Notes under the pieces: generated by a model | The model's database searches: none | What the model saw: the letters and a program-made list of their open reading frames with translations, nothing else | What the model was told of the DNA's origin: nothing | In this document: in pieces, positions 1 to 64,000 of the stretch | How the letters are laid out: each line of letters opens with the position of its first letter | Position numbering within the stretch: the first letter of the stretch is position 1 | Program-made: the position numbers and the translations under genes | Assembly: GCA_028286825.1 (NCBI GenBank) | Contig: JAQBQV010000002.1 | Location: forward strand, 66,157-130,156 | Origin: Parcubacteria group bacterium | GTDB taxonomy: Bacteria > Patescibacteriota > Minisyncoccia > Phycocordibacterales > Phycocordibacteraceae | Direction of reading: 5' to 3' | Length of the DNA: 64,000 nucleotides

Positions 1-747
1 CTGCGCACACCGCTTTCGGGGATACAGAAAGCAAGCGAGCTCCTGAAGATGCCGCGTAAGCCTGCCGCAGCGTCAAAACAATACGTTGATATCATCTACC
101 AAAACTCTTCCTCGATGCTCGATATGGTGAACGATATCTTGGATGCCGCCAAGCTTCAGGCTGGCAAGTTTGAAATTAACGCTGAACCAGCCAGTATCGC
201 CGAAGTGGTGAGCAATCGAGTTGATTTTTTTAACCTCTCTGCCGGTGATAAAAAGATCAAACTCAAAGTCACGATCGATAAAGCGGTACCAGGCGCCGTG
301 CCTTTTGACGTCCAGCGTATTAAACAAGTGCTTAATAACCTGATCTCGAACGCGCTCAAGTTTACTCCTGAGGCTGGTGCGATTTCAGTCGTCGCCTTTC
401 TCCACGAGGCTGGTGGGCTCGTAAATAAGGAATTACATAAGACAGGCGTCGTACCGCCAGAGCCGCTTCCGGAGGATCAGTTTGCCAAACTCCCACCCTC
501 ACTTGTGGTTGCCGTAACAGACTCAGGGGTAGGAATACCGCTGGAGCACCGGGGTGAGCTTTTTAGTAAATTCAAGCAATTGAGCAATACAACGCTTGTA
601 ACAAATATCAAGGGCACGGGACTAGGTCTCGCGATCGCTCGTGGTATCATTACCGAACACGGAGGCATTATCGACGTTGTTTCAAAAGCAGATATCGGAA
701 GCACTTTTTACTTCGCGTTACCCGTAGAAAAATCACCTTTACCATAA
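1..747 (+). CDS. sensor histidine kinase, C-terminal part (5' end outside window)
   Basis: Frame open from nt 1. LRTPLSG (H-box tail) at nt 1-21, then N-box LNNLISNALKFT, G1 DSGVGIP and G2 GTGLGLAIARG (HisKA/HATPase_c). Confidence 0.9.
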   Translation: MRTPLSGIQKASELLKMPRKPAAASKQYVDIIYQNSSSMLDMVNDILDAAKLQAGKFEINAEPASIAEVVSNRVDFFNLSAGDKKIKLKVTIDKAVPGAVPFDVQRIKQVLNNLISNALKFTPEAGAISVVAFLHEAGGLVNKELHKTGVVPPEPLPEDQFAKLPPSLVVAVTDSGVGIPLEHRGELFSKFKQLSNTTLVTNIKGTGLGLAIARGIITEHGGIIDVVSKADIGSTFYFALPVEKSPLP

Positions 748-755
748 TAGAATCT

Positions 756-1124
756 ATGAAAAAAATACTGATCGTGGACGACGATATGACATTTGTCGCG
801 ATGATGAAGGCAGCGCTCGATCCTAAGAAGTACGAGGTGACATCAGCTGGAAACGGGATTGAGGCCTTAAGTACGCTTGAAGAGTCGATGCCTGACCTGA
901 TCCTGCTAGATATCATGATGCCAAAGATGGATGGGATCGAGTTTCTTACAGAAATGAATAAGAAGTACGGCGAGCACAAAACGTCGGTCCTCATTACTTC
1001 CAACAACTCATCCTTGGACAAGATTAGCGAGGGAGTCGCTCTCGGGATCAAGGGATATTTTATTAAATCAAACGAGTCGCTCCACGGGATTATCGCAATG
1101 ATCGAAAGCGCCTTGCCTAAATAA
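756..1124 (+). CDS. response regulator, receiver domain only (CheY-like)
   Basis: 122 aa. Acidic pocket VDDD, phospho-acceptor Asp in LILLDIMMPKMDG, conserved Lys in IKGYFIKS. No output domain; 8 nt after the kinase stop. Confidence 0.9.
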   Translation: MKKILIVDDDMTFVAMMKAALDPKKYEVTSAGNGIEALSTLEESMPDLILLDIMMPKMDGIEFLTEMNKKYGEHKTSVLITSNNSSLDKISEGVALGIKGYFIKSNESLHGIIAMIESALPK

Positions 1125-1150
1125 CGGCTCGAAATGAGTTAGAAACAAAC

Positions 1151-1170
1151 GAGGAGCCGAAAGGCTCCTC
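1151..1170. terminator. hairpin between convergent genes
   Basis: GAGGAGCC-gaaa-GGCTCCTC perfect 8-bp stem. T-rich only on the minus-strand side. Confidence 0.55.
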
Positions 1171-1432
1171 ACGTGTTTGCAGACGGTGTAACTGATACGG
1201 GTCGCGGCTCTACATAAATGGGCTCACTTACTTTGCCAAGAATGATGAATCGAATGATCTGAATAGCGATCGCATTTACTTTACACACCTCAACACGGAT
1301 GATGACATCTTCTCCGTCGAAGTACGTCTCGACTAAGGGCTGGTGCTCAGTGCCATTTTGGCGGATTTGTTCTGCGTACTTTTTCGCTCGTCTAAATCGA
1401 AACTCTTTTTCTTGCATGATCGTTGCGGTCAT
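1169..1432 (-). CDS. hypothetical small protein (87 aa)
   Basis: ATG preceded by GGAAGGA with 5-nt spacing (SD). No family recognised. Confidence 0.5.
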   Translation of the reverse strand: MTATIMQEKEFRFRRAKKYAEQIRQNGTEHQPLVETYFDGEDVIIRVEVCKVNAIAIQIIRFIILGKVSEPIYVEPRPVSVTPSANT

Positions 1433-1508
1433 GACAGTCCTTCCGTATGTTCGAAGCCGAAGTAGCTTCTAGAGTAAGTATACAGCTGAGCAAGGGTGAA
1501 ATATGTTC

Positions 1509-2240
1509 TTACTTGATACCTATGTGAGAGAGGAACTCGGAAAGCTCTTCGCCTTCGATGGGGCGCGACTCGCCTGAAGCTAGGCCATCGAGGCGGACAT
1601 TCAGAACGCGCGATCGCTCAAGTTCAACGACGGTGTTGTGCATTGCTGAGACCATGCGGCGGATCTGGTGCTTCTTACCTTCTGTGAGCGTGATCATAAA
1701 ACTCTTAGGACCGGTCTTTCGCACGACGCACTTTTTGGTCATGTAGCCTTCGATGTTGACGCCTGCTTCCATGTGCTTTTTAAAACTGTCTCGAAGTGGT
1801 TCACTTGTCTTCACTCGGTATTCTTTATCGTGATCGAAGCGAGGCGAGAGAAGACGATCCGTTACACGGCCGTCGTTAGTGAGGATCAGGAGTCCGCTTG
1901 AGTCCTTGTCGAGGCGACCAACAGGGAAGACGTCCTTAGGTAGCGAGGCGGCCTGCTTAACATCCTTCTCGCCGAGTTGAGGCGAGTGCGTGATCACTCC
2001 GACAGGTTTGTTAAAGGCGTAATAGAGATACTTTTTATTTGTATGAGCCTTGCCCTTCATTTCAACCTTGTCGTCTTCATATACCTTATCGCCCAAGACC
2101 GCGACGCGACCGTTGAGAAGTACGCTTCCACGCGTGATAAGCTCATCCGCGCCACGACGAGTTGAGATACCCTCACGGGCGAGGTATTTATTGATCCGCA
2201 TCGGGTATTCCGGTACGGCTTCTGGAGTCGTTTTGTCCAT
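1509..2240 (-). CDS. pseudouridine synthase, RsuA/RluB family (S4 + PseudoU_synth_2)
   Basis: S4 domain MRINKYLAREGISTRRGADELI; catalytic motif VGRLDKDSSGLLILTNDG. ORF track starts at 2291; ATG 2240 preferred because TATAGT lies 6 nt upstream. Confidence 0.85.
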   Translation of the reverse strand: MDKTTPEAVPEYPMRINKYLAREGISTRRGADELITRGSVLLNGRVAVLGDKVYEDDKVEMKGKAHTNKKYLYYAFNKPVGVITHSPQLGEKDVKQAASLPKDVFPVGRLDKDSSGLLILTNDGRVTDRLLSPRFDHDKEYRVKTSEPLRDSFKKHMEAGVNIEGYMTKKCVVRKTGPKSFMITLTEGKKHQIRRMVSAMHNTVVELERSRVLNVRLDGLASGESRPIEGEELSEFLSHIGIK

Positions 2241-2316
2241 GCGGGCACTATACGCTAGAATTGCTTTTTTTGCTAAGTAATGTACGGTCACATCCCGTTC
2301 CTCATGACGGATGGGC

Positions 2317-2322
2317 TATACT
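2317..2322 (+). promoter_or_regulatory. -10 box (TATACT) 7 nt upstream of ATG 2330; leaderless-type promoter
   Basis: gggcTATACTttgtcttATG; no SD. Confidence 0.5.
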
Positions 2323-2329
2323 TTGTCTT

Positions 2330-2824
2330 ATGACACCACGAATCACTTTTGTGCTAACTGGAGGGACGATTGATAAAGAATACGATGCGCTCGATAAGGC
2401 GTTTACCATCGGGAGCGGCGCAGTCAGTCGGATCCTGGGCTATGTGAGACCCAACTTCGAAGCTACGATAATTCCGGTTGTCCAAAAAGTAAGCGTCAAC
2501 ATACTCCCTGAAGAGAAGGAGGCTGTTCGTATGGCGTGTGCGAGTGCAGCAGATGACAAAATCATTGTTACTTATGGCACCGACGCAATGACTGAAATTG
2601 GCGAGATATTGAAAGACATCCGCAGCAAGACAATTGTTATCGTTGGAGCGCTTAAGTCACAACTGATCAAGGAGACAGATGCAGAGTTTAATTTAGGGTT
2701 TGCTGTTGCAGCTGTGCAGACACTTCCGACTGGGGTGTACGTCGCCATGAGCGGGCGCGTCTATCCTTGGGACAAATGTAAAAAGAATATGACCACTGGT
2801 CAGTTCGAAGAATTTGAGAATTAA
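2330..2824 (+). CDS. asparaginase-family protein, N-terminal domain only (164 aa)
   Basis: Asparaginase signatures TGGTIDK, TYGTDAMTE and IVGALKSQ..TDAEFNL. No C-terminal domain. ORF track starts at 2261. Confidence 0.65.
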   Translation: MTPRITFVLTGGTIDKEYDALDKAFTIGSGAVSRILGYVRPNFEATIIPVVQKVSVNILPEEKEAVRMACASAADDKIIVTYGTDAMTEIGEILKDIRSKTIVIVGALKSQLIKETDAEFNLGFAVAAVQTLPTGVYVAMSGRVYPWDKCKKNMTTGQFEEFEN

Positions 2825-2861
2825 TTTTTCTTTTTTTCGCGAAATAAGGTACGGTAGAGAG

Positions 2862-4322
2862 ATGGGAAGAGAAGATGCATTAATACGATTTGAAGGAGTC
2901 TCCTTCGGCTACGGCCACAACAAACCAATCCTCGAGGAGGTGGATTTTCCTATTCGCCGCGGGATGAAGATGGCAATTATGGGTCAAAACGGTGCCGGTA
3001 AGTCAACACTCTTTGCGCTCATGACAGGAGCGTTGAAGCCTGAGAGTGGTGAGATTAATGTCTCACGAGGTATGAAGGTCGCCACTGCGCCACAGGTGAT
3101 TCCACGTGAGGACATGACCCTTACGGTGCGAGAGTACTTCCAAAAGTGTTTTGCGGAGCCTATTTACGATATCGACCCGAGAATCGACGAGGTACTGGAA
3201 GTTGTGAATTTGAAGCATCACGAAAAACTGCATGATCGCATAATAAAAAGCTTCTCTGGCGGCCAGCAAGCGCGACTCCTGCTGGCTTCTGCGCTGATAC
3301 AGAACCCCGACCTCCTCCTCCTCGACGAGCCGACCAATAATTTGGACACTGGGGGCATTGAACACCTCACCAAATACTTAGTCGACTACGACAAGACAGT
3401 GATCGTCATTTCTCACGACGCAGCATTCCTTAATGCGTTTACAACCGGCGTGCTCTATCTCGACGTCTTCACACGAAAGATCGAGCAGTACCCTGGTAAC
3501 TTTAATGACGTACAACGTGACATTTTGGCGCGCATCGATCGCGAAAATCGTAAGAATGCTCAACTAGAGAAAAAGATTCAAGAAAATAAAGACAAGGCAA
3601 ACTTCTTTGCACAGAAGGGAGGCAAGATGCGTCTCGTCGCTAAGAAAATGCGTACTGAAGTTGAAGAGATGGAGGAAGAGAAAGTCGATGTCCGCAAAGA
3701 AGATCGCACCATTCGACCATTTATAATTCCCGCTCAGCCTGAATTAAGCGGCACGGTGCTCGCGCTCACCTCATATAGCGTACTTAAAAAGGGAGAGCCG
3801 ATAGAAAAGAAGGCAAATATAAACGTCCGTAAGAATAACCACTTGCTTCTTAAGGGTCCAAACGGAATCGGTAAGAGCACACTTCTCGAGAGTATTGCAA
3901 AAGGAACAGCCGCAGGTGCGACTATCGCAAAAGATGTAAAAGTTGGGTATTACCGACAAGACTTCTCGACGCTCGACTTTGACTCAACCGTTCTAGCGGC
4001 CCTTCGAACCGCAATGGGTCAGCCTGACGAGCAAAAGCTTCGTGCGATCGCAGCAGGATTTCTCATTACGTCTGATGTAATGGAGACGAAGATTGGCAGC
4101 CTTTCAGAAGGGCAGAAAGGATTGGTGGCGTTCTGCTCCCTGGTACTCGAGCGGCCCGGACTCCTGATTCTCGATGAGCCGACCAACCACATTAACTTTC
4201 GCCATTTGCCGATTATCGCCAAAGCGCTGAGCGCGTATGAGGGCGCAATGGTTCTCGTTTCCCACGTGCCTGAATTTGTCGAGCAAATCCGCATTGATGA
4301 CATCCTCGATCTTGAAAAATGA
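2862..4322 (+). CDS. ABC-F family ATPase (two ABC cassettes, no TM domain)
   Basis: Walker A GQNGAGKST and GPNGIGKST; signatures FSGGQQARL and LSEGQKGLV; charged linker between the cassettes. ORF track TTG start at 2814. Confidence 0.9.
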   Translation: MGREDALIRFEGVSFGYGHNKPILEEVDFPIRRGMKMAIMGQNGAGKSTLFALMTGALKPESGEINVSRGMKVATAPQVIPREDMTLTVREYFQKCFAEPIYDIDPRIDEVLEVVNLKHHEKLHDRIIKSFSGGQQARLLLASALIQNPDLLLLDEPTNNLDTGGIEHLTKYLVDYDKTVIVISHDAAFLNAFTTGVLYLDVFTRKIEQYPGNFNDVQRDILARIDRENRKNAQLEKKIQENKDKANFFAQKGGKMRLVAKKMRTEVEEMEEEKVDVRKEDRTIRPFIIPAQPELSGTVLALTSYSVLKKGEPIEKKANINVRKNNHLLLKGPNGIGKSTLLESIAKGTAAGATIAKDVKVGYYRQDFSTLDFDSTVLAALRTAMGQPDEQKLRAIAAGFLITSDVMETKIGSLSEGQKGLVAFCSLVLERPGLLILDEPTNHINFRHLPIIAKALSAYEGAMVLVSHVPEFVEQIRIDDILDLEK

Positions 4323-5167
4323 ATCCACGAACTATCTCGGCAACGTTCAAAATGAAAGACGTCATGGAGGGCGCGGGCGTCCTCTTAAAGCGCGGCTTTT
4401 CAAACGTAGAAGCCGGGCTCTTTGACCCGTTCCTGCTCTTCGATGACTTCAGTTCAAACATTCCTGAGCACTATCAGGCCGGGTTCCCGTGGCATCCGCA
4501 TCGTGGGATGGAAACAGTGACGTACATCCTCGATGGAGCAGTGCGCCACAAGGACAGTCTCGGGAACGAAGGCGTGATCGAGTCGGGTGCCTTGCAGTGG
4601 ATGACGGCCGGAAGTGGGATTATCCACGAAGAGATGCCGGAGAGCGTGCACGGCATTCGCGGCTTCCAGTTGTGGGTGAACTTGCCTAAAGCTAATAAAA
4701 TGGACAAACCGCGCTATCAAGATTTGGTCGGCAAGTCTGTCCCTGAGACCTCGCTCGGTTCAAACGCAAGAGTGAAGATTGTGGCAGGAAGTTTGGCTAA
4801 CGTGACTGGCCCCCTAGAGTCGATCGCGGGCAGTCCTTTGTACGCTGATATTACTCTTGAGGCGTATGGTAGCGTGTCGATCCCGGTGCCAGACGGGCAC
4901 ACGGTATTCGCCTATGTGATCGAGGGTGCGCTCGGTCTTGATGATGGTAAAGATGTGTTCTACGCCCCTGGTACGATTCTCCTTTTTAATAAAAACGGTA
5001 CGGAGGCAAACTTGCGTGCGCCGATAGCTGGCGCGCGCTTCCTCCTCATCGCAGGAGCTCCGCTTAATGAGCCAATCGCCTGGCACGGGCCAATTGTTAT
5101 GAATACTAACGAAGAACTGCAAGAAGCTTTTTCGGATTTAGACCGCGGGACTTTTATCCGCCCTTAG
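4319..5167 (+). CDS. pirin family protein
   Basis: HPHRGMETVTYILDG...H cupin metal motif. ATGA start/stop overlap with the ABC-F gene. Confidence 0.85.
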   Translation: MNPRTISATFKMKDVMEGAGVLLKRGFSNVEAGLFDPFLLFDDFSSNIPEHYQAGFPWHPHRGMETVTYILDGAVRHKDSLGNEGVIESGALQWMTAGSGIIHEEMPESVHGIRGFQLWVNLPKANKMDKPRYQDLVGKSVPETSLGSNARVKIVAGSLANVTGPLESIAGSPLYADITLEAYGSVSIPVPDGHTVFAYVIEGALGLDDGKDVFYAPGTILLFNKNGTEANLRAPIAGARFLLIAGAPLNEPIAWHGPIVMNTNEELQEAFSDLDRGTFIRP

Positions 5168-5565
5168 CGGCGAGCCTCAAGTAAGCTAATAATTTTATCG
5201 AGTTTGTCGTTTTCAATACGCGCAAGACGAGTCTGGAGCTCTTCAATCTCAGCTTTAGCTTTAAGATTAGTTTCATAGTCTGCCTCGGCTTGGTCACGGT
5301 CGCGCGCGGACTGACGATTCTGGCTCATCATAATGATTGGCGCAGCGTAGGCGGCCTGCGTTGAGAAGATCAAGTTGAGGAGAATAAATGGAAACGGGTC
5401 CCACTGATTCATAATTCCCACAATATTAAGCACCATCCACACGATCACAAAGAGCGTTTGAATGATGATAAACGCCCATGAGCCCATTGCTCCAGCTACC
5501 GTATCTGCAATTCGCTCTCCAAACGAGCGCTCGGACTCATCCTTCTTATGCCAGTTAGTTGTCAT
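5164..5565 (-). CDS. DUF1003-type membrane protein
   Basis: FGERIADTVAGAMGSW, two TM helices, SQNRQSARDR and a C-terminal coiled coil. TACAAT lies 7 nt upstream of ATG 5565 (ORF track start 5631). Confidence 0.7.
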   Translation of the reverse strand: MTTNWHKKDESERSFGERIADTVAGAMGSWAFIIIQTLFVIVWMVLNIVGIMNQWDPFPFILLNLIFSTQAAYAAPIIMMSQNRQSARDRDQAEADYETNLKAKAEIEELQTRLARIENDKLDKIISLLEARR

Positions 5566-5642
5566 GATGCGAATTGTATCACTGCAGAGAAGCAGAAAAC
5601 CCACTATGCTACAATGCCTGTTCTTAACCATAAATTATTTTT

Positions 5643-6158: not shown

Positions 6159-6184
6159 TCGCTTAAGTATAGTATTACGCACAT

Positions 6185-7747: not shown

Positions 7748-7776
7748 TTGACTATAGTTGAATGAAGTGCTTTAAT
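7748..7776 (+). promoter_or_regulatory. candidate sigma-70 promoter (TTGACT-17 nt-TTTAAT) for 7820 operon
   Basis: -35 at 7748-7753 and -10 at 7771-7776, directly after the permease stop. Confidence 0.4.
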
Positions 7777-7819
7777 CTTTCTTAAGAAGGTCTTTGATTA
7801 CCTATAGAAAGGGAGCAAA

Positions 7820-8362
7820 ATGGGCGTACTGAACCTCACTCCGGAGTGTTTTGTGGACTTGGTCCTACTTGGTTTGTACTGGGAGCACTGGCCGCCAAAA
7901 ATCCGTGCCAGCAGTAAGGGGATGCCATTTCTTCAGGATGGTTGGACAACGATTGATCACGTACTGAAACTTGCGGTTCGCATGGAAGTTGTTACACAAC
8001 AACAGGTCATCGGACTCGTTCAGCATAAGATCTACGGCGTCCCGCATCAAAGAAAACTTGCCTACCACTGTGGTAGTACTGCAGGGGGTGAGGAAGGGCG
8101 TTTTCTGTTTCTGCTGCGAGAGTCGACATTCACTGGCTCGACCAACAGGACGCGGTTGGTGCGGAATATGCGCATACAATTGACGTCTCTCGGTGCAGAA
8201 ATTGCTCAGACTCGCGAACAGAAATATGAACAATTTTCCCGAGAACGGTATCTGCAAGAGGCGAAAACGGTGAACGATATGTTCACTACTGAAAAAGCGT
8301 CTGCCTGTGCGAGTAACGTTTACCGCAGGAGAGTTGCTTCCGACTTGGGAGAAAAGCAATGA
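7820..8362 (+). CDS. hypothetical protein (180 aa)
   Basis: SD AAAGGGAG 4 nt upstream of the ATG; ATGA overlap with the next ORF. No family recognised. Confidence 0.55.
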   Translation: MGVLNLTPECFVDLVLLGLYWEHWPPKIRASSKGMPFLQDGWTTIDHVLKLAVRMEVVTQQQVIGLVQHKIYGVPHQRKLAYHCGSTAGGEEGRFLFLLRESTFTGSTNRTRLVRNMRIQLTSLGAEIAQTREQKYEQFSRERYLQEAKTVNDMFTTEKASACASNVYRRRVASDLGEKQ

Positions 8363-8870: not shown

Positions 8871-8898
8871 TGCATAAGGTAACGATTCGTTGTATATT
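8870..8898 (+). promoter_or_regulatory. candidate sigma-70 promoter of typA (TTGCAT-17 nt-TATATT)
   Basis: -35 at 8870-8875 and -10 at 8893-8898. Leader of about 27 nt without SD. Confidence 0.5.
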
Positions 8899-8931
8899 TA
8901 AATCAACGGCCCGAGCCGCTTTTTTAATTCT

Positions 8932-11195: not shown

Positions 11196-11280
11196 GGTAC
11201 CTCTTTCGGGTTGTAGATCCACGCGGACTCTACCACGATCGTATTGCTTTGCAAGCTCGACCATGGTACATAGGGTATAT

Positions 11281-52211: not shown

Positions 52212-52291
52212 CAGGCACCCTGTTGTTAGGATATCACGTTATATAGTAAAAGTCAAGTGCAACAACCTATCACCCAGGCGATGGTTTAGAC

Positions 52292-53947: not shown

Positions 53948-53963
53948 ATAAGCTTAGTATAAC

Positions 53964-55393: not shown

Positions 55394-55421
55394 TTGACGG
55401 AAGAGTCAAAATTGTTATAAC
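55394..55421 (+). promoter_or_regulatory. canonical sigma-70 promoter (TTGACG-16 nt-TATAAC)
   Basis: -35 at 55394-55399 and -10 at 55416-55421. Leader of about 40 nt to the SD-led ORF at 55467. Confidence 0.55.
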
Positions 55422-55466
55422 TATCTGCGGAACTAACTGTCTTACCGGGCTTTGGAGGGCCTCGCA

Positions 55467-55943: not shown

Positions 55944-55958
55944 AAAATAAAAAGCCTC

Positions 55959-55987
55959 ACTACCTGGAACACGGGTAGTTCTTTTTT
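55959..55987 (+). terminator. rho-independent terminator
   Basis: ACTACC-tggaacacg-GGTAGT followed by TCTTTTTT. Confidence 0.7.
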
Positions 55988-56022
55988 AAAAGAAACCGCC
56001 CAAACCTAGAAAGGTTGGGCGG
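55988..56022 (-). terminator. rho-independent terminator (minus strand)
   Basis: CCGCCCAACC/GGTTTGGGCGG stem, followed on minus by TTTCTTTT. Back-to-back with 55959-55987. Confidence 0.7.
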
Positions 56023-56045
56023 AGTGAAAGAGCGGGTATGGCGAC

Positions 56046-56492
56046 TTAGGTCTTCGCGATTGCGGCCTCTGTGCGCTGCGCTTGCGGCTTGTGCTGATAT
56101 TGCATTTGCTTCGCGGCGGCTGAGGTGGGCACTGTCTCGACAGAAAGGGCGACGCCTTCGCCAAACTTATTCAGGCGGCCGAGTTCCTGCAGGAGAAAGA
56201 ACTGGCGCTCCGAATCGGCGAACCGGAAACCATCGTGGTGCGCTTCGGGCTCGTGAAGGCGCACCTGCTCAAAGGTTGCTGTGGTAACCGACGGAAGACC
56301 GCACGCATGTGCCACTTCCTTCGAGAGGGAAGCAATGACGGTCGTTCCCGGCTGCATGCACACTGCCTCCAGCTTGTTGAGCGGGTCCACCAGGGCATGC
56401 GAATGCCGTGTAACGGGGTAGATGATCAGCTGGTCGCCAGGTCGCGCAGGATCAGAACGAACAGTTGCTGCCTTGAGGCTGAAGTCGCACAT
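56046..56492 (-). CDS. hypothetical protein (148 aa) with MCDFSL N-terminus
   Basis: SD AGGAGA 8 nt upstream of the ATG; terminator downstream. The N-terminus resembles uncharacterised MCDYSL... proteins; this is from memory only and unverified. Confidence 0.55.
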   Translation of the reverse strand: MCDFSLKAATVRSDPARPGDQLIIYPVTRHSHALVDPLNKLEAVCMQPGTTVIASLSKEVAHACGLPSVTTATFEQVRLHEPEAHHDGFRFADSERQFFLLQELGRLNKFGEGVALSVETVPTSAAAKQMQYQHKPQAQRTEAAIAKT

Positions 56493-56514
56493 CAGAAGTC
56501 TCTCCTGTGGTTGT

Positions 56515-56573: not shown

Positions 56574-57731
56574 CTAGGGCAGGAACTGCTGGAAAAACTT
56601 TCTAACGCTCGTGCCTACGTTCTTTTTTGGGGCTGCTGTGTCGCCCGTAAGTCCCCAAAGGGCGAGGCCGTACGCAACGGCCCAGGTAGCGTCACGGATT
56701 TTGGTGTCTGCAGATATCCGCAGTTCGGCAAGACGCGCAGGGAGCTTGAGTGAGCCTTTGGCAATGTCGCTAATTGAGCCGACACCTGAGCCACCTCCTG
56801 AAATGATGATGCCCGCAGGAAGGGGACCCCTGCGGCCAAGCGACTTCAAGTGCTTGTCGATAAGTGCAAACATATTATTTAAACGGTTGGCAATAAAGTC
56901 GTCTATCTTTTTCCTGGGGTACATTGCGCCCGTGAGTTTACCAACTTTCACGCGCTCTGCTTCGTCAAGAGAGATGCGCAGACCAAGGGCAATGTCATCG
57001 GTAATGTGGCTTGAACCCATCGGGAATACTTTGACTGAAACAGGAATTCCTTCATCATAGACAACGATTGAAACCGTTTCTGCACCAATGTTTGCCAGAA
57101 CGCAACCTTTCATTTTCTGGTCGCCTTCAAGAAGTACGTAAGAGCCTGCAAGCGGAGAAGCCATCTGGTCAATGATTTCTATGTCAGCGTCTTCTATCGC
57201 TGCGGCAAGCGCCTCTTCGTGTTGTGCGAGACAGGTAACAAAGAGATAGTCCACCTCGAGGCGGACCCCTTTCATCCCAAGGGGGTCACCAAGCACTTTG
57301 TTACCGTCAATTCGATACTCGACCGGGATGCTGTGGAGCACGTGACGATTTAGGAATCCTGGGGCAGCAGCTTCGCGGGCAGCCTTGCCGGCTTTTTCAA
57401 TATCAAGCGCGGTGATTTCTTGATCAGCACGCGAGATAATGGCGAAGCCGCTTGCGCGCGCTTCATCCAATGAGATTCCACCTACCGCAAGAAAGCCTGC
57501 ACGGATAGGGACGCGGGAGACCGACTCGGCTTGTCGCTTTGCTTCGCGAATACTTGCGGTCACCTCCTCTTTATTGACGATGTAGCCGTGGCGTAGTCCT
57601 CTCGATTCTGACAGCCCGGTCCCGATGATACGAATTTGCCGCCCGCCGTGTTTATCGGTGAGTTCCTCGACGACTACCATTTTGACTTGGTACGTGCCGA
57701 TGTCGATTCCGGTTGCGATTCGTCGTGACAT
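56574..57731 (-). CDS. ftsA: cell division protein FtsA
   Basis: Actin-fold phosphate-1 motif IATGIDIGTYQVKMVV, ANIGAETVSIVVY, IISGGGSGV. ORF track start 57857; Met 57731 fits the family N-terminus. Confidence 0.88.
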   Translation of the reverse strand: MSRRIATGIDIGTYQVKMVVVEELTDKHGGRQIRIIGTGLSESRGLRHGYIVNKEEVTASIREAKRQAESVSRVPIRAGFLAVGGISLDEARASGFAIISRADQEITALDIEKAGKAAREAAAPGFLNRHVLHSIPVEYRIDGNKVLGDPLGMKGVRLEVDYLFVTCLAQHEEALAAAIEDADIEIIDQMASPLAGSYVLLEGDQKMKGCVLANIGAETVSIVVYDEGIPVSVKVFPMGSSHITDDIALGLRISLDEAERVKVGKLTGAMYPRKKIDDFIANRLNNMFALIDKHLKSLGRRGPLPAGIIISGGGSGVGSISDIAKGSLKLPARLAELRISADTKIRDATWAVAYGLALWGLTGDTAAPKKNVGTSVRKFFQQFLP

Positions 57732-58128
57732 GAGGTAATGGGCGCATAGAACTCTGGGCATATTTTGCCAAGAGTTTTTGTTCGCTATTCTCCATCGTAG
57801 CACCATGGGCCCTCCCTTGTACGTGCAGTAGACCGTGGATAAACAAATACGTGACAAATGTGCGTTCGCTCATTTCATAACTCGCGCACTGCCGATGAGC
57901 TTCTTCTAGACAGATAAATATTTCCCCACTCTTCGCGCCTAGGGCATACGAGAGCACGTTCGGTACGTAACTTTTGTTTCGTAACTTTTGGTTGAGTGTT
58001 CGGGCTCGCTTTGCCCCCACAAACACAAGCGAGATCTCCCAGGAGGGGAGTACATCGTTTGCAATTCTGGTAAAAAGCGCACGCGACGCCACGGGGCGTC
58101 GCGTAAAGTTTTGTATTGAGACTGACAT
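57652..58128 (-). CDS. ybeY: rRNA maturation endoribonuclease YbeY
   Basis: Zinc motif HGLLHVQGRAH. An N/R-rich tail of about 35 aa overlaps the ftsA start by 80 nt. Confidence 0.8.
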   Translation of the reverse strand: MSVSIQNFTRRPVASRALFTRIANDVLPSWEISLVFVGAKRARTLNQKLRNKSYVPNVLSYALGAKSGEIFICLEEAHRQCASYEMSERTFVTYLFIHGLLHVQGRAHGATMENSEQKLLAKYAQSSMRPLPHVTTNRNRNRHRHVPSQNGSRRGTHR

Positions 58129-58393: not shown

Positions 58394-58487
58394 AGTGATA
58401 AGACTCTACCACATCCACAGCCAAATTGTCTATCAGCGGAGCTGTGGGTGTAGGATAGGGAAGGATCAACAACTGAAGGATGATGTG

Positions 58488-59018
58488 ATGAAAATATCTG
58501 TTCCCCCAGGAAGGCTTGGCGCACTCAACGCGGACGTCGAAGAATGCTATGCGTTCAATGATTGGCGTCCGACAGCGGTTGCCGTGCTGGAGGCTCCTGA
58601 CGGACGCATCTTGCGCGCGTGTACGAAGGGCGGCTGGTGGGGATTCCCACAGGGTAGAATCGAGCAAGGTGAAGACATTCTTGCTGGCTGCTGTCGAGAA
58701 GTGCATGAAGAGCTTGGATTCGAGCACTCGATCTTCGATGAAGCTCGGGGCTTCGTCTACCAGGGCGATCTTCAGGTGCCGAACAATCCCGACGGGTTTA
58801 AGCATGGCAAGCGACTGTATTACTTTCATTTTATCCTGCACGGGACCCCATTCATTACTCTAAACACGGGCGAGCTCAGTGCCTGCGAGTGGGATCAACC
58901 CGATCGGGTGTACCAATTCTTTAGCGGCTTACGGCGCGTCTATACGGAGAAGCGTAGACAGCTCCTTCAGGTGATTTCGCTTCTGCCGAGCATGCCTCAA
59001 GGCGCACTTCCGTTCTGA
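58488..59018 (+). CDS. NUDIX hydrolase
   Basis: Nudix box GRIEQGEDILAGCCREVHEELGF. SD GAAGGA upstream. ORF track start 58380 would overlap rpsU. Confidence 0.8.
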   Translation: MKISVPPGRLGALNADVEECYAFNDWRPTAVAVLEAPDGRILRACTKGGWWGFPQGRIEQGEDILAGCCREVHEELGFEHSIFDEARGFVYQGDLQVPNNPDGFKHGKRLYYFHFILHGTPFITLNTGELSACEWDQPDRVYQFFSGLRRVYTEKRRQLLQVISLLPSMPQGALPF

Positions 59019-59980: not shown

Positions 59981-61126
59981 TTATGCTACCGCTTTCAACC
60001 GTTCGATAATACCCAGGAGGGGGACAATGGTCTCTTGTTGTGTTTGTCGATTGCGCAAAATTGCTGAGCCCTCAAGCGCCTCTTTACGTCCCATGATGAG
60101 AAGGTACGGGCTATTGCGTATCTCAGCCAAGTGGAGCTGCTCGGTGAGAGACTCGATACCAATGTCCTGAGAAAGCGCCACACGTGCTTTGCGAAATTCT
60201 TCTGTGAGCGAGATTGAGACGCGCTTCGCCTCGTCGCCGATGTGTACAAATGAAAAGCGCAGACGCGGATTCACGGGCTTCTTTACGATGTCTCCTTCGC
60301 TGGGGACTTGGAGCACAGCGCCAGTCGCACTCACACCAGCTCCTGGGAAGAAATGTTTCGTGAGATCGGTATATCGTGAACCCCAGGCAACACGTTTGCC
60401 GCCCGCCAAGACCTCGAAACACGTATCACTCCATAGGGGCCCTCGACTAATTAAGTCACGCGCAAGCTCGTAGGGCGTCTCGGTCATCTCCATATATTCA
60501 AGCAGGTCTTCAAATCGCTTGCGGCTCGCGTCCGAGAGGTGTTCGGTAGGAGCAGGGAGGTCCTCGGCGTAGGCTTGCGCGATCATTAGCTCGGCTGCTT
60601 CAAATGCATCACGCTTTGCACAATTGACGCAGTCCTCAGGGAGTGAGTTCGCGCGCTTCTTGAAGAAATTGCCGAGCTCGCGCGCGTAGCGCGCGCGGGT
60701 CTCCTTATCGCCCATTGAGTTGATCCGCACCACTGGCTCTTCGTGGTATAGGTCGCGCGCGAGAGCAATAAGGGCGCGGATGATGATCACTTCGGAAAGT
60801 GCGCGGTCTGTACCAAGCGCGTGGAACTGCACCGTTGCCTTCTTGGGTGCTGCGCGCCCAGCGGCAATGTTCGTGTGCCAGACAAATAGCGGTTGTCGTG
60901 GCGTCGTAGAGTATTCGACGTTTTGAAATTGCTTTAAGAATCCTGCAACTGTTTCAGCTACCGGATCGAGTGTTAGCTGAGCGAGCGCTTCAGGGTAGCC
61001 CGCATGCTTCAGGCCTTTGCCGCGAGCCTTAAGGGTAAGTGTTGAAAGGGGGGTAAATCCGTAATACTGACCCACTGCCGTCGCCTTATGGAGCAGTTCT
61101 TCAGCTGGGATCACGTCGCGTATCAT
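59981..61126 (-). CDS. histidyl-tRNA synthetase-like protein with degenerate catalytic motifs (HisZ-like)
   Basis: Collinear with HisRS (VQFHALGTD.., NSMGDKETRARY, WGSRYTDL, anticodon-binding LLIMGRKEALEG). LRPEGT, the motif 2 arginines and GGRYD are not conserved. Confidence 0.6.
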   Translation of the reverse strand: MIRDVIPAEELLHKATAVGQYYGFTPLSTLTLKARGKGLKHAGYPEALAQLTLDPVAETVAGFLKQFQNVEYSTTPRQPLFVWHTNIAAGRAAPKKATVQFHALGTDRALSEVIIIRALIALARDLYHEEPVVRINSMGDKETRARYARELGNFFKKRANSLPEDCVNCAKRDAFEAAELMIAQAYAEDLPAPTEHLSDASRKRFEDLLEYMEMTETPYELARDLISRGPLWSDTCFEVLAGGKRVAWGSRYTDLTKHFFPGAGVSATGAVLQVPSEGDIVKKPVNPRLRFSFVHIGDEAKRVSISLTEEFRKARVALSQDIGIESLTEQLHLAEIRNSPYLLIMGRKEALEGSAILRNRQTQQETIVPLLGIIERLKAVA

Positions 61127-61695
61127 GGTGAGGTTGTGGTCGCGAGCGAATAATTTGCGCTGCCGGGGAAGAATCCAAGGTTGCCGACCGGCAGGAGTCG
61201 GACGTCAACGCGACCGATAATGTTTTTCCTTGGGAGAGGGCCCCAGACGCGTGAGTCAGAGCTGTTAGGGCGATTGTCGCCCATAACGAAGTATTCGCCA
61301 GCGTTTAGGGTGACGTCTCTCGTGTAGGTGGCGTCCTCGTTCACGATATATGGTTCTGAGAGTGTCTCCTCTTTCCCCGTGATGGTGGTAACCGATACTA
61401 CACCGTGATTGATCGAGACCGTCTCGCCCGGCAACCCTATGATGCGTTTGATATAGAAGACTGACGGATTGCCTGGGTAGCGAAACACGATGACGTCGCC
61501 ACGCACAGGAGACTTTAGTGTGTAAACTATTTCATCAACAATGAGATAGTCCAAATTTTCGAACGTGGGATGCATCGATTCGCCATCAACCACAAACGGA
61601 GAGACAACGAAAAGGCGAATAGGGATAACAACAATAACGATGAGAAACGCAAGAGTGAAAAGATCCTTCAGAAGACCCTTTCCAGTGTCAGACAT
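61123..61695 (-). CDS. lepB: signal peptidase I
   Basis: TM anchor, catalytic Ser GESMHPT, Lys box YIKRIIGLPGE, GDNRPNSSDSR. TACAAT lies 6 nt upstream. Confidence 0.92.
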   Translation of the reverse strand: MSDTGKGLLKDLFTLAFLIVIVVIPIRLFVVSPFVVDGESMHPTFENLDYLIVDEIVYTLKSPVRGDVIVFRYPGNPSVFYIKRIIGLPGETVSINHGVVSVTTITGKEETLSEPYIVNEDATYTRDVTLNAGEYFVMGDNRPNSSDSRVWGPLPRKNIIGRVDVRLLPVGNLGFFPGSANYSLATTTSP

Positions 61696-61854
61696 GCACG
61701 CATTGTACTCTAGCGTTTGTGGCGCGCAAGCTTTTCTACCACAGATCGCTCCGAGTCAACTATTTTTCAGAGCGTTTCGTTTTACTGCACTTGGCACACT
61801 CTGAAAAATCGTTACCTCGTCGCTTGAGTGAAGCTGCTATGCTACGATTCTCGC

Positions 61855-62451
61855 ATGGCACTCGTCATAGTTGGTCTCGGGAATCCCGGAACAGAGTACG
61901 AAAAGACGCGTCACAACGCCGGTAGGACGGCAGTTGAGCTAATCGCGTCAAAAGAAGGATTGGAAGAGTTCGTTTTCAATAAAACGGCGAAAGCCTTGGT
62001 TACAAAGGGTAGTGTTGGAGGTGAGAATGCTACGCTTGTACTTCCTGAGACAATGATGAACCTCTCTGGCAAGGCCGTAATGGCATTTGTGAAGAGTCCA
62101 AAGGCTGCAAAAAACTTGCTCGTGATCCACGACGATCTCGATCTGCCTCTTGGCACGGTCAAAATGGTATTTGGCCGCGGGAGCGGGGGACATAAAGGTG
62201 TTGAGAGCATCATGCGCGCGATTAAGACCAAAGACTTCGCTCGAATTCGCATAGGTATCAGTGCAGTAGGGAAGCAGAATCAGGCAAAGAAAGTCTCGGG
62301 CGAAGAGAAGGTGATCAAAATGGTGATTGGTAAATTTAAACCGACCGAAGAAGCCTCACTTAAGAAGGTATTAAAAAAAGTCGTAGAAGCATCGCAGCTT
62401 TTCGCTTCTGAGGGCATCGAAGCTGCAACTATGTTTGCAAATACCCGCTAA
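61855..62451 (+). CDS. pth: peptidyl-tRNA hydrolase
   Basis: VGLGNPGTEYEKTRHNAG, HDDLDLPLG, GGHKGV. ORF track start 61828. Confidence 0.9.
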   Translation: MALVIVGLGNPGTEYEKTRHNAGRTAVELIASKEGLEEFVFNKTAKALVTKGSVGGENATLVLPETMMNLSGKAVMAFVKSPKAAKNLLVIHDDLDLPLGTVKMVFGRGSGGHKGVESIMRAIKTKDFARIRIGISAVGKQNQAKKVSGEEKVIKMVIGKFKPTEEASLKKVLKKVVEASQLFASEGIEAATMFANTR

Positions 62452-62467
62452 GTCATACTATTTCCGC

Positions 62468-62560
62468 ATGAAAAATAATGAAATGAAATTGCGTATTCTC
62501 GGAGGCTTGATAATTTTCGTTATTCTTTTAGGTCTTTTTGCTATGTCGATGGTCAGTTAA
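62468..62560 (+). CDS. possible small membrane peptide (30 aa)
   Basis: MKNNEMKLRILGGLIIFVILLGLFAMSMVS; lies between pth and the terminator. No SD. Below the ORF-track length cutoff. Confidence 0.3.
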   Translation: MKNNEMKLRILGGLIIFVILLGLFAMSMVS

Positions 62561-62572
62561 CCACAACAAATC

Positions 62573-62605
62573 AAAACACCCGGTGCCTTTGGCACCGGGT
62601 GTTTT
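62573..62605. terminator. 15-bp perfect bidirectional terminator
   Basis: AAAACACCCGGTGCC-ttt-GGCACCGGGTGTTTT between convergent pth and rpsA. Confidence 0.85.
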
Positions 62606-62625
62606 GATTTCGACTTCTTAAAGGG

Positions 62626-63762
62626 TTATTTCTTCTTCGCCGTGTAGGTCAGCGTCATGCGCTGATCCTTTGGTTCAAAGAGGGCAATTGAGAATGGGTA
62701 GGTCTTACCGAGCTCAAGAGTTTCTCGGAGAGCTACAGGAGATTCAAACTCACTTACGTGTACGAGACCAGCAACACCCTCCTCAATAGAGGCGAGAGCA
62801 CCGTGCTTGTTGTACTTAATAATGACACCCGGCACTTCCATACCCTTAGTGTAGCGCTCACTTGCGGTGTGCCACGGGTTATCCTTAAGGGCTTTGATCG
62901 AGAGGGAAATCTTCCCGTCTTTGATTTCGATTACTTTCACGCGAACCTTCTCACCGACATTGAAGAGTGAGCGTGGGTCCTCAACAAGGCCCCAGTCGAG
63001 CTCGCTGATGTGCACAAGACCTTCGAGACCTGGTTCGAGCTTCACGAAGACGCCGAAGTCAACAACACCGGTGACTTCGCCTTCTGCGGCATCGCCCACC
63101 TGGTACTTGTCGATAAGGGAAGCCTTTTCTTCAGCCTCGTTACCGGTGCGCTCTGAGAAGATAAGCTTACCTTCTTTAGGGTCAGCGGTGATAATACGCA
63201 CTGAGAGCGGGTGGCCGACAAGCGCATTGAGTTCTCCAAGGATCTTGTCCTTGTCGCCTTCAGGCACTCGTGGATAGTGCTCCTTAGAAAGCTGGGAAGC
63301 AGGGAGGAATCCTTGAATACCTTGCCACGTGAGGATGAGCCCGCCCTTGTTTGCTTCTTCTACGGTAATTGAGTACGCAGTCTCAGAGAGAATAGCTGCC
63401 TCAGCTTCGCCCCAGATCGCCGCTTGGCGAGCCTCCTTAAGCGAGAGTTCGATGTAACCGTCGCGACCGGCAGCGTCGATAACTTTTGCAGAAATGATGT
63501 CGCCTGAGTTTGCCTTACGGAGCACGTCAGCAGCGTTGAGGTATTCGCGACCGTAAATGAGGCCTGTACCAAATGGCGGCAGGTCGATATAGACGCGACC
63601 GCGATTCATCGCGATGATCGTACCCTCGACAAGGTCTCCGTTGTTTGGAGGAGTCGGGATACCGTCAATAAGACCGAACATCGGATGGTCGGCTGAAACG
63701 TGGATGGTTGGTAGCGGGATAGCCTTAGGCTTCGCCACTACCGAAGTGGTCTCTTCAGACAT
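62626..63762 (-). CDS. rpsA: 30S ribosomal protein S1 (four S1 domains)
   Basis: Repeated S1/OB motifs (GDLVEGTIIAM, GDIISAKVIDA, GDAAEGEVTGVVDFGVFVKL, GMEVPGVIIKYNKHGA). Confidence 0.9.
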   Translation of the reverse strand: MSEETTSVVAKPKAIPLPTIHVSADHPMFGLIDGIPTPPNNGDLVEGTIIAMNRGRVYIDLPPFGTGLIYGREYLNAADVLRKANSGDIISAKVIDAAGRDGYIELSLKEARQAAIWGEAEAAILSETAYSITVEEANKGGLILTWQGIQGFLPASQLSKEHYPRVPEGDKDKILGELNALVGHPLSVRIITADPKEGKLIFSERTGNEAEEKASLIDKYQVGDAAEGEVTGVVDFGVFVKLEPGLEGLVHISELDWGLVEDPRSLFNVGEKVRVKVIEIKDGKISLSIKALKDNPWHTASERYTKGMEVPGVIIKYNKHGALASIEEGVAGLVHVSEFESPVALRETLELGKTYPFSIALFEPKDQRMTLTYTAKKK

Positions 63763-63871
63763 GTGTGTAAAGCGGTGCGGATTTTCGTAAAGGGTGCTGT
63801 AGCCTTGCGGCTATCAGGGTTAACACCTCACTACTTCTTCGACACTCGTTAGAGAGGACTGTAGCACAAGA

Positions 63872-63901
63872 GCTAAAGTATGAAAAGAGTGACCCCGCAT
63901 T
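63872..63901 (-). terminator. rho-independent terminator of an upstream minus-strand gene
   Basis: GACCCCGCA-caa-TGCGGGGTC on minus, followed by ACTCTTTTCAT. Confidence 0.6.
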
Positions 63902-64000
63902 GTGCGGGGTCAGGATTGGCTGAGGCAGGATTGCCTATGGCCGCGTGCGGTTCTTCAGGTCGACTGGAAGCCGATCTGCGGCATTGCATCGCCATGCGAG

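Follow-up and report, generated by a model that had tools for sequence, protein, structure and literature searches.

Which signals mark the starts of genes in a Parcubacteria genome, and do its conserved genes and its orphans rely on the same ones? We explored this question in 64,000 nucleotides (nt) of contig JAQBQV010000002.1 (assembly GCA_028286825.1, Parcubacteria group bacterium), a stretch called the window below. An earlier note, made from the letters of the window alone, had proposed two regimes of translation initiation: one in which a hexamer like the -10 promoter element ends a few nt before the start codon, and one in which a Shine-Dalgarno (SD) motif precedes it. Both regimes were found in the window and in 80 related loci. 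The further claim that this split separates core from orphan genes held in one half: SD motifs are tied to non-core genes, but many orphans are of the leaderless type, and the split is a strong tendency, not a rule. We think it probable that the genome combines a native leaderless architecture with SD-bearing cassettes of its flexible genome, and a reason for this partition is proposed below.

The window has a GC content of about 0.50 along its whole length and holds about 68 protein genes, a tmRNA, an RNase P RNA and 8 tRNAs. Its FtsH (13915-15876) is 74-89% identical to 80 FtsH proteins from metagenome-assembled genomes (MAGs) labelled Kaiserbacteria, Paceibacteria, Parcubacteria or Patescibacteria; judged by this protein, the window belongs to a Kaiserbacteria-like Parcubacteria genome of the Candidate Phyla Radiation (CPR). 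The comparison set consisted of 80 related loci (1.3 Mb), whose 1163 called genes were clustered into families and aligned. A start was taken as fixed by homology if it was the most upstream alignment column with a start codon in at least 60% of the members, a rule that is blind to the upstream sequence. The homology-fixed set contains 592 starts in 43 families, only 15 of which are large.

The -10 motif at start codons

We called a start leaderless-type if a TAnnnT hexamer ended 5-9 nt upstream of the start codon. By this definition 35 of the 68 window genes are leaderless-type, compared with 6.5% of all or random ATGs. The earlier note had listed 17 such starts, and all 17 have the hexamer 6-8 nt before the ATG (TATACT in nine of them); about 18 further starts are beyond that list. 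Of the 4096 hexamers, TATACT ranks first for a position 5-9 nt before an ATG that opens an open reading frame (ORF) of at least 60 codons in the window (9 of its 29 copies, against a background of 2%, P = 4 × 10−9). N-terminal homology alone regained seven of the 17 listed starts (2240, 12447, 13915, 19097, 19151, 20638 and 24975). The deposited NCBI annotation gives an identical protein for 7 of the 10 starts checked (5 of the 8 looked up among the listed 17) and differs at DUF1003 (5164-5631, -), LemA (19127-19729, +) and DUF192 (24939-25499, +). The listed starts are given here with the distance from hexamer to ATG.

2238 to 2252, minus strand: pseudouridine synthase, TATAGT, 6 nt; homology and NCBI give the same start
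2317 to 2332, plus strand: asparaginase-N, TATACT, 7 nt; 12.3 bits with the position weight matrix; divergent partner of 2240(-)
5563 to 5578, minus strand: DUF1003, TACAAT, 7 nt; homologues align from residue 1; the homology-column method favoured 5631
12435 to 12449, plus strand: SmpB, TATACT, 6 nt; homology-supported
13901 to 13917, plus strand: FtsH, TGC-TATAAT, 8 nt; homology-supported
19095 to 19110, minus strand: RecG, TATACT, 7 nt; its -10 overlaps a plus-strand TATAGT at 19107-19112
19138 to 19153, plus strand: LemA, TATGAT, 7 nt; homology-supported
20625 to 20640, plus strand: hyp140, TAGAAT, 7 nt; Pfam-negative, yet conserved in 11 loci
21074 to 21090, plus strand: LemA2, TATACT, 8 nt
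23540 to 23554, plus strand: methyltransferase, TATACT, 6 nt
24167 to 24182, plus strand: hyp162, orphan of the leaderless type, TATACT, 7 nt
24963 to 24977, plus strand: DUF192, TACAAT, 6 nt; homology-supported
30890 to 30904, plus strand: MurJ, TATGAT, 6 nt
34459 to 34473, plus strand: hyp112b, orphan of the leaderless type, TATACT, 6 nt
35511 to 35527, plus strand: hyp94, orphan of the leaderless type, TATACT, 8 nt
53945 to 53961, minus strand: thioredoxin-reductase-like protein, TATACT, 8 nt
61693 to 61707, minus strand: signal peptidase, TACAAT, 6 nt

Further starts of the same kind, or close to it, are the following.

2850 to 2864, plus strand: ABC-F, weak -10 TACGGT, 6 nt before ATG; TAnGGT kept in orthologues
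37678 to 37692, minus strand: PrsW, TATAAT, 6 nt before GTG 37680
39890 to 39906, minus strand: class-I aminoacyl-tRNA synthetase, TGG-TATAGT, 8 nt before ATG 39892
41428 to 41443, plus strand: oligoribonuclease (gene 41441-42028), TAGTAT, 7 nt before ATG
43691 to 43707, minus strand: SpoU methylase, TAGAGT, 8 nt before ATG 43693
49675 to 49691, minus strand: hyp797, a large orphan of 797 amino acids (aa) and leaderless type, TACGAT, 8 nt before ATG
61843 to 61857, plus strand: peptidyl-tRNA hydrolase (Pth), TACGAT, 6 nt before ATG; divergent partner of 61695(-)
42846 to 42863, minus strand: DHHA1 protein, TAGAAT, 9 nt before ATG
41416 to 41434, minus strand: TsaD, TATACT, 10 nt before ATG; leader of about 3 nt
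49731 to 49750, plus strand: VTT-domain protein, TATACT, 11 nt before ATG; leader of about 4 nt

An apparent SD of ABC-F was rejected, as it belongs to the conserved TAnGGT -10 region. The ftsZ gene has its own -10-like box 12 nt upstream of ATG 55351, so that TsaD, the VTT protein and FtsZ, with boxes at 10-12 nt, would have leaders of a few nt. The oligoribonuclease identity is supported by E = 1 × 10−46 to solved Orn chains, with an alignment from the N-terminus; this gene (+) and the DHHA1-domain gene (41988-42848, -) are convergent, and their 3' ends overlap by 41 nt.

The same arrangement is widespread in the related loci. There, 179 of 550 TATACT copies lie 6-9 nt upstream of the ATG of an ORF that is 100 codons or longer, and the distances peak sharply at 6-7 nt. 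Among the homology-fixed starts, TAnnnT at a gap of 5-9 nt was found in 56%, compared with 2.4-3.9% of internal ATG decoys, and the gap again peaks at 6-7 nt. A majority of members is leaderless-type in 16 of the 43 families. All 64 loci that have 8 or more genes show the signal, with a leaderless-type fraction between 22% and 88% (median 46%). When 5-mers were screened without bias, the -10 words came out on top and GGAGG/AGGAG next. A logo aligned on the hexamer gave the extended -10 consensus tRtGG-TATAcT and no information at -35; only 4 of 497 promoters have a TTGACA-like -35 at 16-18 bp, and the gap from hexamer to ATG is at least 6 nt in 96% (mode 6). The remark of the earlier note that the hexamer is often preceded by TGG or TGC is true of this clade consensus but weak at the listed starts themselves (TGn in 4 of 17, TGG/TGC in 1 of 17).

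A motif at a distance typical of a ribosome-binding site (RBS) could also be a non-SD RBS or translation enhancer in leadered mRNAs, as in the Bacteroidetes-type 'group B'. We find this hardly credible. Three untranslated RNAs also have the extended motif, 6-9 nt upstream of their mature 5' ends:

28341 to 28352, minus strand: RNase P RNA promoter, TGG-TATAGT (28347-28352), 6 nt before the RNA 5' end at 28340
12979 to 12996, plus strand: tmRNA promoter, TGG-TATTCT (12982-12987), 9 nt before the tmRNA 5' end at 12997
44153 to 44170, plus strand: tRNA-Val promoter, TGG-TATATT, 9 nt before the tRNA 5' end

Its presence at an equal distance in front of RNAs that are never translated identifies the TATACT-type motif as a promoter of the sigma-70 extended -10 kind rather than an RBS. 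It fits the sigma-70 -10 consensus TAnnnT plus the extended TG(G), and in conserved families it is about twice as frequent at first-in-unit genes as at internal genes (63% vs. 28%). In addition, high scorers of the promoter matrix are rarer in the window than in shuffled sequence (37 vs. about 52), except at gene starts, where 17 of the 37 lie 6-11 nt upstream.

Some further properties of the boxes were observed. The -10 consensus is near-palindromic (AGTATACT), and boxes score on both strands at 19105-19112, 21069-21079, 28398-28405, 35067-35074 and 6166-6173. Divergent gene pairs with very short spacers and back-to-back boxes occur at 2240/2330, 5565/5643, 19097/19151, 49677/49748 and 61695/61855. 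Strong TATACT or TATAGT boxes also lie in coding DNA, in smpB (12762-12767, +), the methyltransferase (23638-23643, +), GT4 (50930-50935, +) and tsaD (41147-41152, -), and these are possible internal or antisense promoters. Upstream of hyp106 (13775, -; region 13776-13914) there is a TATACT at 40 nt (13816-13821) and no SD, and an out-of-frame ATG lies 5 nt past the box.

Shine-Dalgarno motifs and -35 promoters

In the window, a gene was counted as SD-led if its SD free energy (dG) was at most -6.4 kcal/mol and no -10 hexamer was present; an SD was called strong at dG <= -8. The earlier note had listed 13 SD-led ORFs. The motif is there in all 13, but it is strong in only four (16468, 45667, 46606 and 55467), and the other nine have dG values of -5.5 to -7.6, which 9-15% of random window ATGs reach. 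The SD-led share is 11 of 22 Pfam-negative genes compared with 2 of 46 Pfam-positive genes (Fisher P = 2 × 10−5) and 9% of random ATGs. SD-led ORFs are few and individually weaker, yet they are above chance and real as a class. It had also been stated that eleven of the 13 have unknown function, and we agree: 11 have no Pfam or PHROG match. The three -35/-10 promoters proposed for this class (7748-7776, 35960-35988 and 55394-55421) are present as sequence and match the clade-wide pattern described below.

7809 to 7822, plus strand: hyp180, SD AAGGGAG, ATG 7820, dG -7.6; NCBI JWN18_134; SD kept in homologues
7748 to 7776, plus strand: candidate promoter of hyp180, TTGACT-17-TTTAAT, or TATAGT at 7753-7758; leader about 45-55 nt
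8346 to 8361, plus strand: hyp155, SD GGGAGA, ATG 8359; also an ATGA overlap with hyp180
16456 to 16470, plus strand: hyp92, SD GAGGAGGT, ATG 16468, dG -12.7; called in a Logan assembly
36040 to 36054, plus strand: hyp113, SD AGGAGA, ATG 36052, dG -7.4; start not on record as a called gene
35959 to 35988, plus strand: candidate promoter of hyp113, perfect TTGACA-17-TATCAT; leader about 57 nt
45665 to 45680, minus strand: hyp144, SD AAAGGAGGA, ATG 45667, dG -11.6; near-ORFan
46604 to 46619, minus strand: GGDEF2, SD AAGGTGAGGT, ATG 46606, dG -8.4
55453 to 55469, plus strand: hyp158, SD GGAGGG, ATG 55467, dG -9.8
55394 to 55421, plus strand: candidate promoter of hyp158, TTGACG-16-TATAAC; leader about 39 nt
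56490 to 56507, minus strand: hyp148, SD AGGAGA, ATG 56492, dG -7.4; ORFan between ftsA and ftsZ
1430 to 1445, minus strand: hyp87, weak SD GGAAGGA, dG -5.7, ATG 1432; TATACT at 1477-1482, 44 nt upstream
58475 to 58490, plus strand: NUDIX, weak SD GAAGGAT, dG -5.5, ATG 58488
11193 to 11204, minus strand: hyp132, doubtful gene, weak SD AGAGGT, dG -6.7, ATG 11195; codon score 0.013; not on record
16277 to 16290, minus strand: hyp112, doubtful gene, weak SD GGAGA, dG -6.6, ATG 16279; not on record
39984 to 39997, plus strand: hyp69, doubtful gene, weak SD GGAGA, dG -6.4, ATG 39995, its fifth candidate start; not on record
52167 to 52181, minus strand: hyp239, additional, SD GGGAGGA, GTG 52169, dG -10.2
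52228 to 52256, minus strand: candidate promoter of hyp239, TTGACT-17-TATCCT
57804 to 57818, minus strand: FtsA, possible core-gene SD exception, AAGGGAGGG 3 nt before ATG 57806; start uncertain

Two of these SD-led ORFans, hyp158 (+) and hyp148 (-), separate ftsA from ftsZ (55467-56492), genes that are usually neighbours and co-transcribed. The FtsA in the deposited annotation (56574-57857, -) is 368 aa long and lacks the conserved IATGIDIG motif of the N-terminus.

In the related loci, GGAGG peaks at 5 nt and AGGAG at 6-7 nt before the ATGs of long ORFs, and because of these peaks the SD consensus is the canonical AGGAGG at canonical spacing. SD-led genes of the clade are first-in-unit genes, not operon-internal ones. 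We defined a full -35/-10 promoter as TTGACA with at most one mismatch, a spacer of 16-18 bp and TAnnnT, within 120 nt upstream. Such promoters were found at 18 of 103 SD-led first-in-unit genes, compared with a mean of 1.2 in shuffles (maximum 6 in 200 trials), which is a 15-fold excess; the share is 17.5% among SD-led genes, 1.6% among leaderless ones and 4.2% where neither signal is present. The SD-led promoters have weaker -10 elements (TACGCT, TAAGGT, TAGGGT and similar) and leaders of 23-81 nt. From these rates, hexamers and leaders, the two classes differ in promoter type, leader and RBS together. The co-occurring -35 promoters also lend some support to the idea of the earlier note that the SD genes form a dedicated expression class.

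The SD class could be an artefact, in which chance purine runs precede spurious or mis-started intergenic ORFs that were picked for such runs. The modest dG of nine of the 13 ORFs would fit this, as would low codon scores, and several ORFs do not begin at their first candidate start; for 11195(-), 16279(-), 36052 and 39995, which have the lowest codon scores, there is no recorded gene call with those starts. The nine other listed ORFs, however, have the same start in independent annotation pipelines, and hyp180 has real homologues in which the SD is conserved. An artefact would also have to produce an SD at 50% of Pfam-negative but 4% of Pfam-positive genes, the sharp spacing peak across 1.3 Mb, the enrichment over matched decoys in variable genes only and the 15-fold excess of -35 promoters. 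We regard it as decidedly improbable.

The SD is also retained across species. In families 19 and 27 it is found in 4 of 5 members each, despite diverged flanks, and two of the 43 families are at least 80% SD, compared with about 0.1 expected at a chance level of 10-15% (an estimate made by hand). In the hyp180 family (35-49% identity) each of the 4 contigs has an SD, provided that the start in L082 is an upstream GTG and not the called ATG. Loci L005 and L026 share the promoter TTGACC...TAnGCT. Conservation of the SD in diverged orthologues, together with the canonical consensus and spacing, suggests that the ribosome keeps a working anti-SD.

Core genes, flexible genes and the proposed explanation

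How strongly is the SD tied to non-core genes? By leave-one-out codon scores in the window, the median is 0.073 for SD genes, compared with 0.201 for leaderless genes (P = 7 × 10−5) and 0.214 for genes with neither signal (P about 1 × 10−4). Within 10 kb of ftsH there are five SD ORFs, each with 0-1 matches in the 80 loci, whereas most of their Pfam-domain neighbours have 3 to 80. SD rates in the clade were counted for all genes by an 'any candidate start' rule at dG <= -8, with matched decoys from within the same genes. By this count an SD precedes 24% of singletons (decoy 10%); the figure is 22% in families with 2-3 members, 21% in those with 4-9 members and 7.8% in those with at least 10 members (15 families; decoy 12%). 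At the homology-fixed conserved starts it is found in 12.5%, against 15% for decoys. The GC content at third codon positions (GC3) is also higher in SD singletons (0.63 vs. 0.52).

A clean separation is contradicted by the orphans of leaderless type. In the window, 8 of the 22 Pfam-negative genes belong to that type (hyp140, hyp162, hyp112b, hyp94, hyp110, hyp797, VTT and hyp85). Among the clade singletons, leaderless starts are commoner than SD even there (35% vs. 24%).

These observations are probably explained by two architectures. In the native one, a sigma-70-type RNA polymerase would recognise the extended -10 (tRtGG-TATAcT) without a -35, and transcription would begin at the A of the start codon or 1-3 nt before it, giving an mRNA that lacks both leader and SD. 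The ribosome and initiator tRNA would bind the 5'-terminal AUG or GUG directly, downstream cistrons would be served by SD-free termination-reinitiation at overlapping or abutting stop and start codons, and a few native genes (bipA, glutaredoxin, TPR protein) would use short A/U-rich leaders without an SD. The flexible genes would be mostly poorly conserved, often ORFans of atypical composition, and in related contigs sometimes neighbours of recombinases. Their cassette would frequently consist of a -35 (TTGACn), a 16-18 bp spacer, a weaker -10, a leader of 30-80 nt and, at 5-7 nt from the ATG, AGGAGG. To explain the partition, we propose that a mobile or fast-evolving gene cannot count on landing 7 nt behind a host promoter and needs its own promoter, leader and RBS, while long-resident genes would have been streamlined to the promoter-fused leaderless form. 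The SD class would then be a flexible genome with self-contained expression cassettes, and some of its genes would be mobile.

Several results weigh against this explanation. The term 'leaderless' rests on geometry, from which transcription would start on the ATG, and gaps of 8-12 nt would mean leaders of 1-5 nt. A pyrimidine at -1 was considered as a signature of the transcription start site, but although it precedes 83% of starts, it is as frequent at starts without a -10 and was dropped. Four of the 13 listed SD ORFs may not be genes, and genes in the loci were called with a simple caller of our own. As the same few dozen families recur in it, the conserved set is pseudo-replicated, and for this reason the family-level Fisher test gives only P = 0.03. 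The comparison of SD strength between conserved and variable genes of the 80 loci shows SD enrichment in the variable ones, but the Pfam-match rates of random singletons from other genomes are not significantly different (SD 7 of 20, leaderless 9-11 of 20). Likewise, the atypical codon usage of SD genes in the window is not repeated within clade singletons, where the codon scores of SD and leaderless genes are not separated (P = 0.45). No integrase or recombinase in the window was found by Pfam or PHROG match. Integration targeted at tRNA genes was considered, as three SD islands lie just 3' of tRNA genes, but no att-like or tRNA-derived direct repeats were found. A phage origin was rejected too: 10 orphans have no PHROG match, and three orphans have no real relatives in viral contigs. 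No 16S rRNA gene or 3' tail was found in the window or the 80 loci (four universal motifs with at most 2 mismatches, and Rfam on the window), and only 48% of Parcubacteria have an anti-SD motif (Tsurumaki et al. 2022, PMC9297842), so that the SD may not function here.

The absence of mobility genes and att repeats in the window would suit another explanation, that the SD/-35 class is a native regulated expression class in which conditional genes keep a -35 promoter and a leader for regulators, while constitutive housekeeping genes use a strong, ATG-fused extended -10. We take this to be unlikely, though it deserves serious weight. It would account for the cross-species conservation of SD and promoters in families 19 and 27 (with the promoter common to L005 and L026), for the lack of outside donors of the tested orphans and for singleton codon scores that are alike for SD and leaderless genes. 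It does not account for the SD-led genes that are missing at syntenic positions in relatives, for the atypical composition of the SD-led window genes or for those SD-led genes that sit with recombinases. Moreover, it overlaps with the explanation by native leaderless genes and flexible SD cassettes rather than excluding it.

The origin of the SD genes bears on a further alternative. The earlier note had considered recent acquisition from SD-using donors, and this fits poorly, since three tested orphans are almost without homologues and the SD is kept in diverged orthologues. For hyp148 no homologue was found; hyp144 has two marginal relatives (E about 1 × 10−5 to 1 × 10−4) among about 1.8 billion representatives, and hyp180 has four distant relatives, in CPR-like contigs. 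In one of these, L082, the hyp180 homologue adjoins a serine recombinase amid a run of small SD-led ORFs. SD-led genes sampled at random from the clade include a serine recombinase and an outer-membrane beta-barrel protein (PF13505), and SD-led genes are mildly clustered (18 adjacent pairs vs. 12 expected, P = 0.03). The beta-barrel gene, an SD-led singleton of a related MAG, is odd for CPR; transfer from a Gram-negative bacterium or a chimera of binning or assembly is possible.

If the SD motifs were relics of recent transfer from SD-using donors, the ribosome might lack the anti-SD, like that of about half of the Parcubacteria. The loss of the anti-SD in a subgroup of Parcubacteria (Tsurumaki et al. 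2022, PMC9297842) speaks for this, as do the lack of any SD enrichment in conserved genes, the atypical codon usage and higher GC3 of the SD-led genes and the odd beta-barrel gene. Relics would not, however, be expected to retain the right spacing in orthologues at 35-49% identity with diverged flanks. No donor is visible, as among about 5.8 billion protein clusters there is no homologue of hyp148 or hyp144. The -10 in front of hyp87 and hyp180 is of the native TATACT/TATAGT form. We consider relics improbable.

A stronger form of the explanation by native leaderless genes and flexible SD cassettes would hold that the conserved genome is fully SD-free, that the ribosome is still SD-competent and that the SD is used almost only by a flexible, largely ORFan pool with canonical cassettes. 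This we put forward tentatively, and we would sooner doubt than assert it. If it is true, initiation signals mark the residence time of genes, and the mode of translation is a near-separate channel for accessory genes.

Is such a system already known? The 'group C' of GeneMarkS-2 has a Pribnow box 6-8 nt before first-in-operon genes and an SD on other genes (Lomsadze et al. 2018, PMC6028130). It comprises 1028 of 4769 bacteria, mainly Actinobacteria and Deinococcus-Thermus (for example Mycobacterium, Streptomyces, Corynebacterium and Deinococcus), and CPR is not mentioned (PMC6028130). The genome studied here is like group C in having TAnnnT 6-8 nt before the starts of first genes, no -35 consensus, a large leaderless share and a second set of SD genes. 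However, in group C the operon-internal and leadered genes, core genes included, use the SD, whereas here those genes are at SD background and the SD is concentrated in variable genes. The coupling of the SD with -35-containing promoters and the TATACT/TATAGT consensus with its TGG extension are also unlike the description of group C. The leaderless share of 63% among conserved first-in-unit genes exceeds the 25-50% quoted for bacteria (PMC6028130).

Tsurumaki et al. (2022, RNA 28:1041, PMC9297842) studied the same superphylum and predicted SD-free initiation in many Parcubacteria, which is what the conserved genes show here. Their work covers only features of rRNA and ribosomal proteins, names no substitute for the SD and does not use the word 'leaderless' (PMC9297842). 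Here an SD class persists and looks selected, which would argue for a retained anti-SD. In the literature searched, whose coverage was partial and does not prove novelty, we found no description of leaderless initiation in CPR or Patescibacteria, and on SD and anti-SD in CPR or Parcubacteria only the rRNA observation of Tsurumaki et al. (PMC9297842). The SD genes resemble a horizontally acquired class in their atypical codon usage and GC3, their absence at syntenic sites, their mild clustering and some association with recombinases; they are unlike such a class in that no donor is visible and no att sites, integrase or phage relatives were found in the window. The two-regime picture as such is already known from group C; what would be new, judged by the literature searched, is the CPR lineage and the near-confinement of the SD to the flexible genome.

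Leaderless genes in a streamlined bacterium are unsurprising; the near-exclusive use of SD and -35 by the flexible genome merits genome-wide attention. If that link holds genome-wide, upstream signals would offer an inexpensive way to trace gene flux in streamlined symbionts, and a natural system in which to study the 'domestication' of incoming genes. Where Parcubacteria lack the anti-SD (PMC9297842), leaderless initiation together with reinitiation is a concrete candidate for what takes the place of the SD. In practice, gene callers that expect an RBS misplace starts in such genomes, and a promoter-to-ATG rule would improve the annotation of thousands of CPR MAGs and provide a promoter model for organisms without genetics.

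Operon-internal genes, SD-free leaders and RNA genes

Genes inside operons raise the question of what replaces the -10 motif there. The five operon-internal starts listed in the earlier note indeed have no SD (dG -0.4 to -5.8 kcal/mol), and each overlaps the stop codon before it or adjoins it (ATGA, GTGA, TAATG, gaps of 1-2 nt). Window starts that overlap an upstream stop on the same strand are 4319, 8359, 19729, 32581, 50380 and 61126; those 1-4 nt from one are 21650, 22357, 6967, 47280, 53017 and 59976. In the clade scan, where a gene was operon-internal if it lay within 25 nt of a co-directional upstream gene, an SD (dG <= -8) was found in 4-5% of such genes, which is background, and the modal distance is -4. 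Termination-reinitiation would be a likely mode at these tightly packed junctions.

4319 to 4322, plus strand: ABC-F/pirin coupled junction, ATGA overlap
19725 to 19731, plus strand: LemA/TPM coupled junction, TAATG overlap without SD
32581 to 32584, plus strand: MurJ/LepA coupled junction, GTGA overlap without SD
50380 to 50383, plus strand: VTT/GT4 coupled junction, ATGA overlap
61123 to 61126, minus strand: signal peptidase/HisRS-like coupled junction, ATGA overlap

The pattern is like termination-reinitiation coupling in that internal starts mostly overlap the upstream stop (modal -4) or follow within a few nt. In model bacteria, translational coupling usually occurs alongside an SD inside the upstream gene; unlike this, the junctions here show no SD enrichment. 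The idea that the SD serves operon-internal genes was rejected, as the internal SD is at background and SD-led genes are first-in-unit.

A few native genes have leaders that are free of an SD. In the TPR protein, TATACT lies 37 nt upstream; two others are given here.

35069 to 35098, plus strand: glutaredoxin, TGG-TATACT, 21 nt, ATG 35096; short A/U-rich leader without SD
8890 to 8934, plus strand: BipA leader, TTGTATATT as -10, small GC hairpin, U-run, ATG 8932; without SD

The bipA/typA leader is kept in many related species (L005, L010, L011, L012, L016, L020, L021, L025 and L075). Its order is a TTGTATATT box, a GC hairpin of 4-5 bp whose arms vary in a compensatory-looking way, a AUUUUUAUUU run and the ATG. 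This arrangement, right before the start codon, resembles an attenuator or a terminator. RNAalifold on a crude alignment gave no consensus structure for this leader, and the short hairpin was probably misaligned there.

The ribosomal protein S1 homologue (62626-63762, -) is short, with 378 aa and few S1 domains, and neither a -10 box nor an SD precedes its start. A bS1 of 3-4 domains has been reported in CPR, which the short homologue fits.

The RNase P RNA (28013-28340, -) is of bacterial class A (Rfam, 123 bits). Its overlap with this RNA led us to discard the ORF at 27931-28206 (+), which is almost certainly spurious. The deposited accession numbering suggests one extra annotated gene between RNR and the TPR protein. 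The tmRNA lies 110 nt after smpB (both within 12447-13406, +) and has its own promoter, and its predicted tag peptide is unusually long (AKNTLTSVKSPYFAMKDFSFAYAAA).

Finally, a tRNA-Ile with a UAU anticodon was found at 16834-16908 (-). AUA is normally read in bacteria by a lysidine-modified CAU tRNA, and the tRNA-Ile(UAU) hints at AUA reading that may be independent of tilS.

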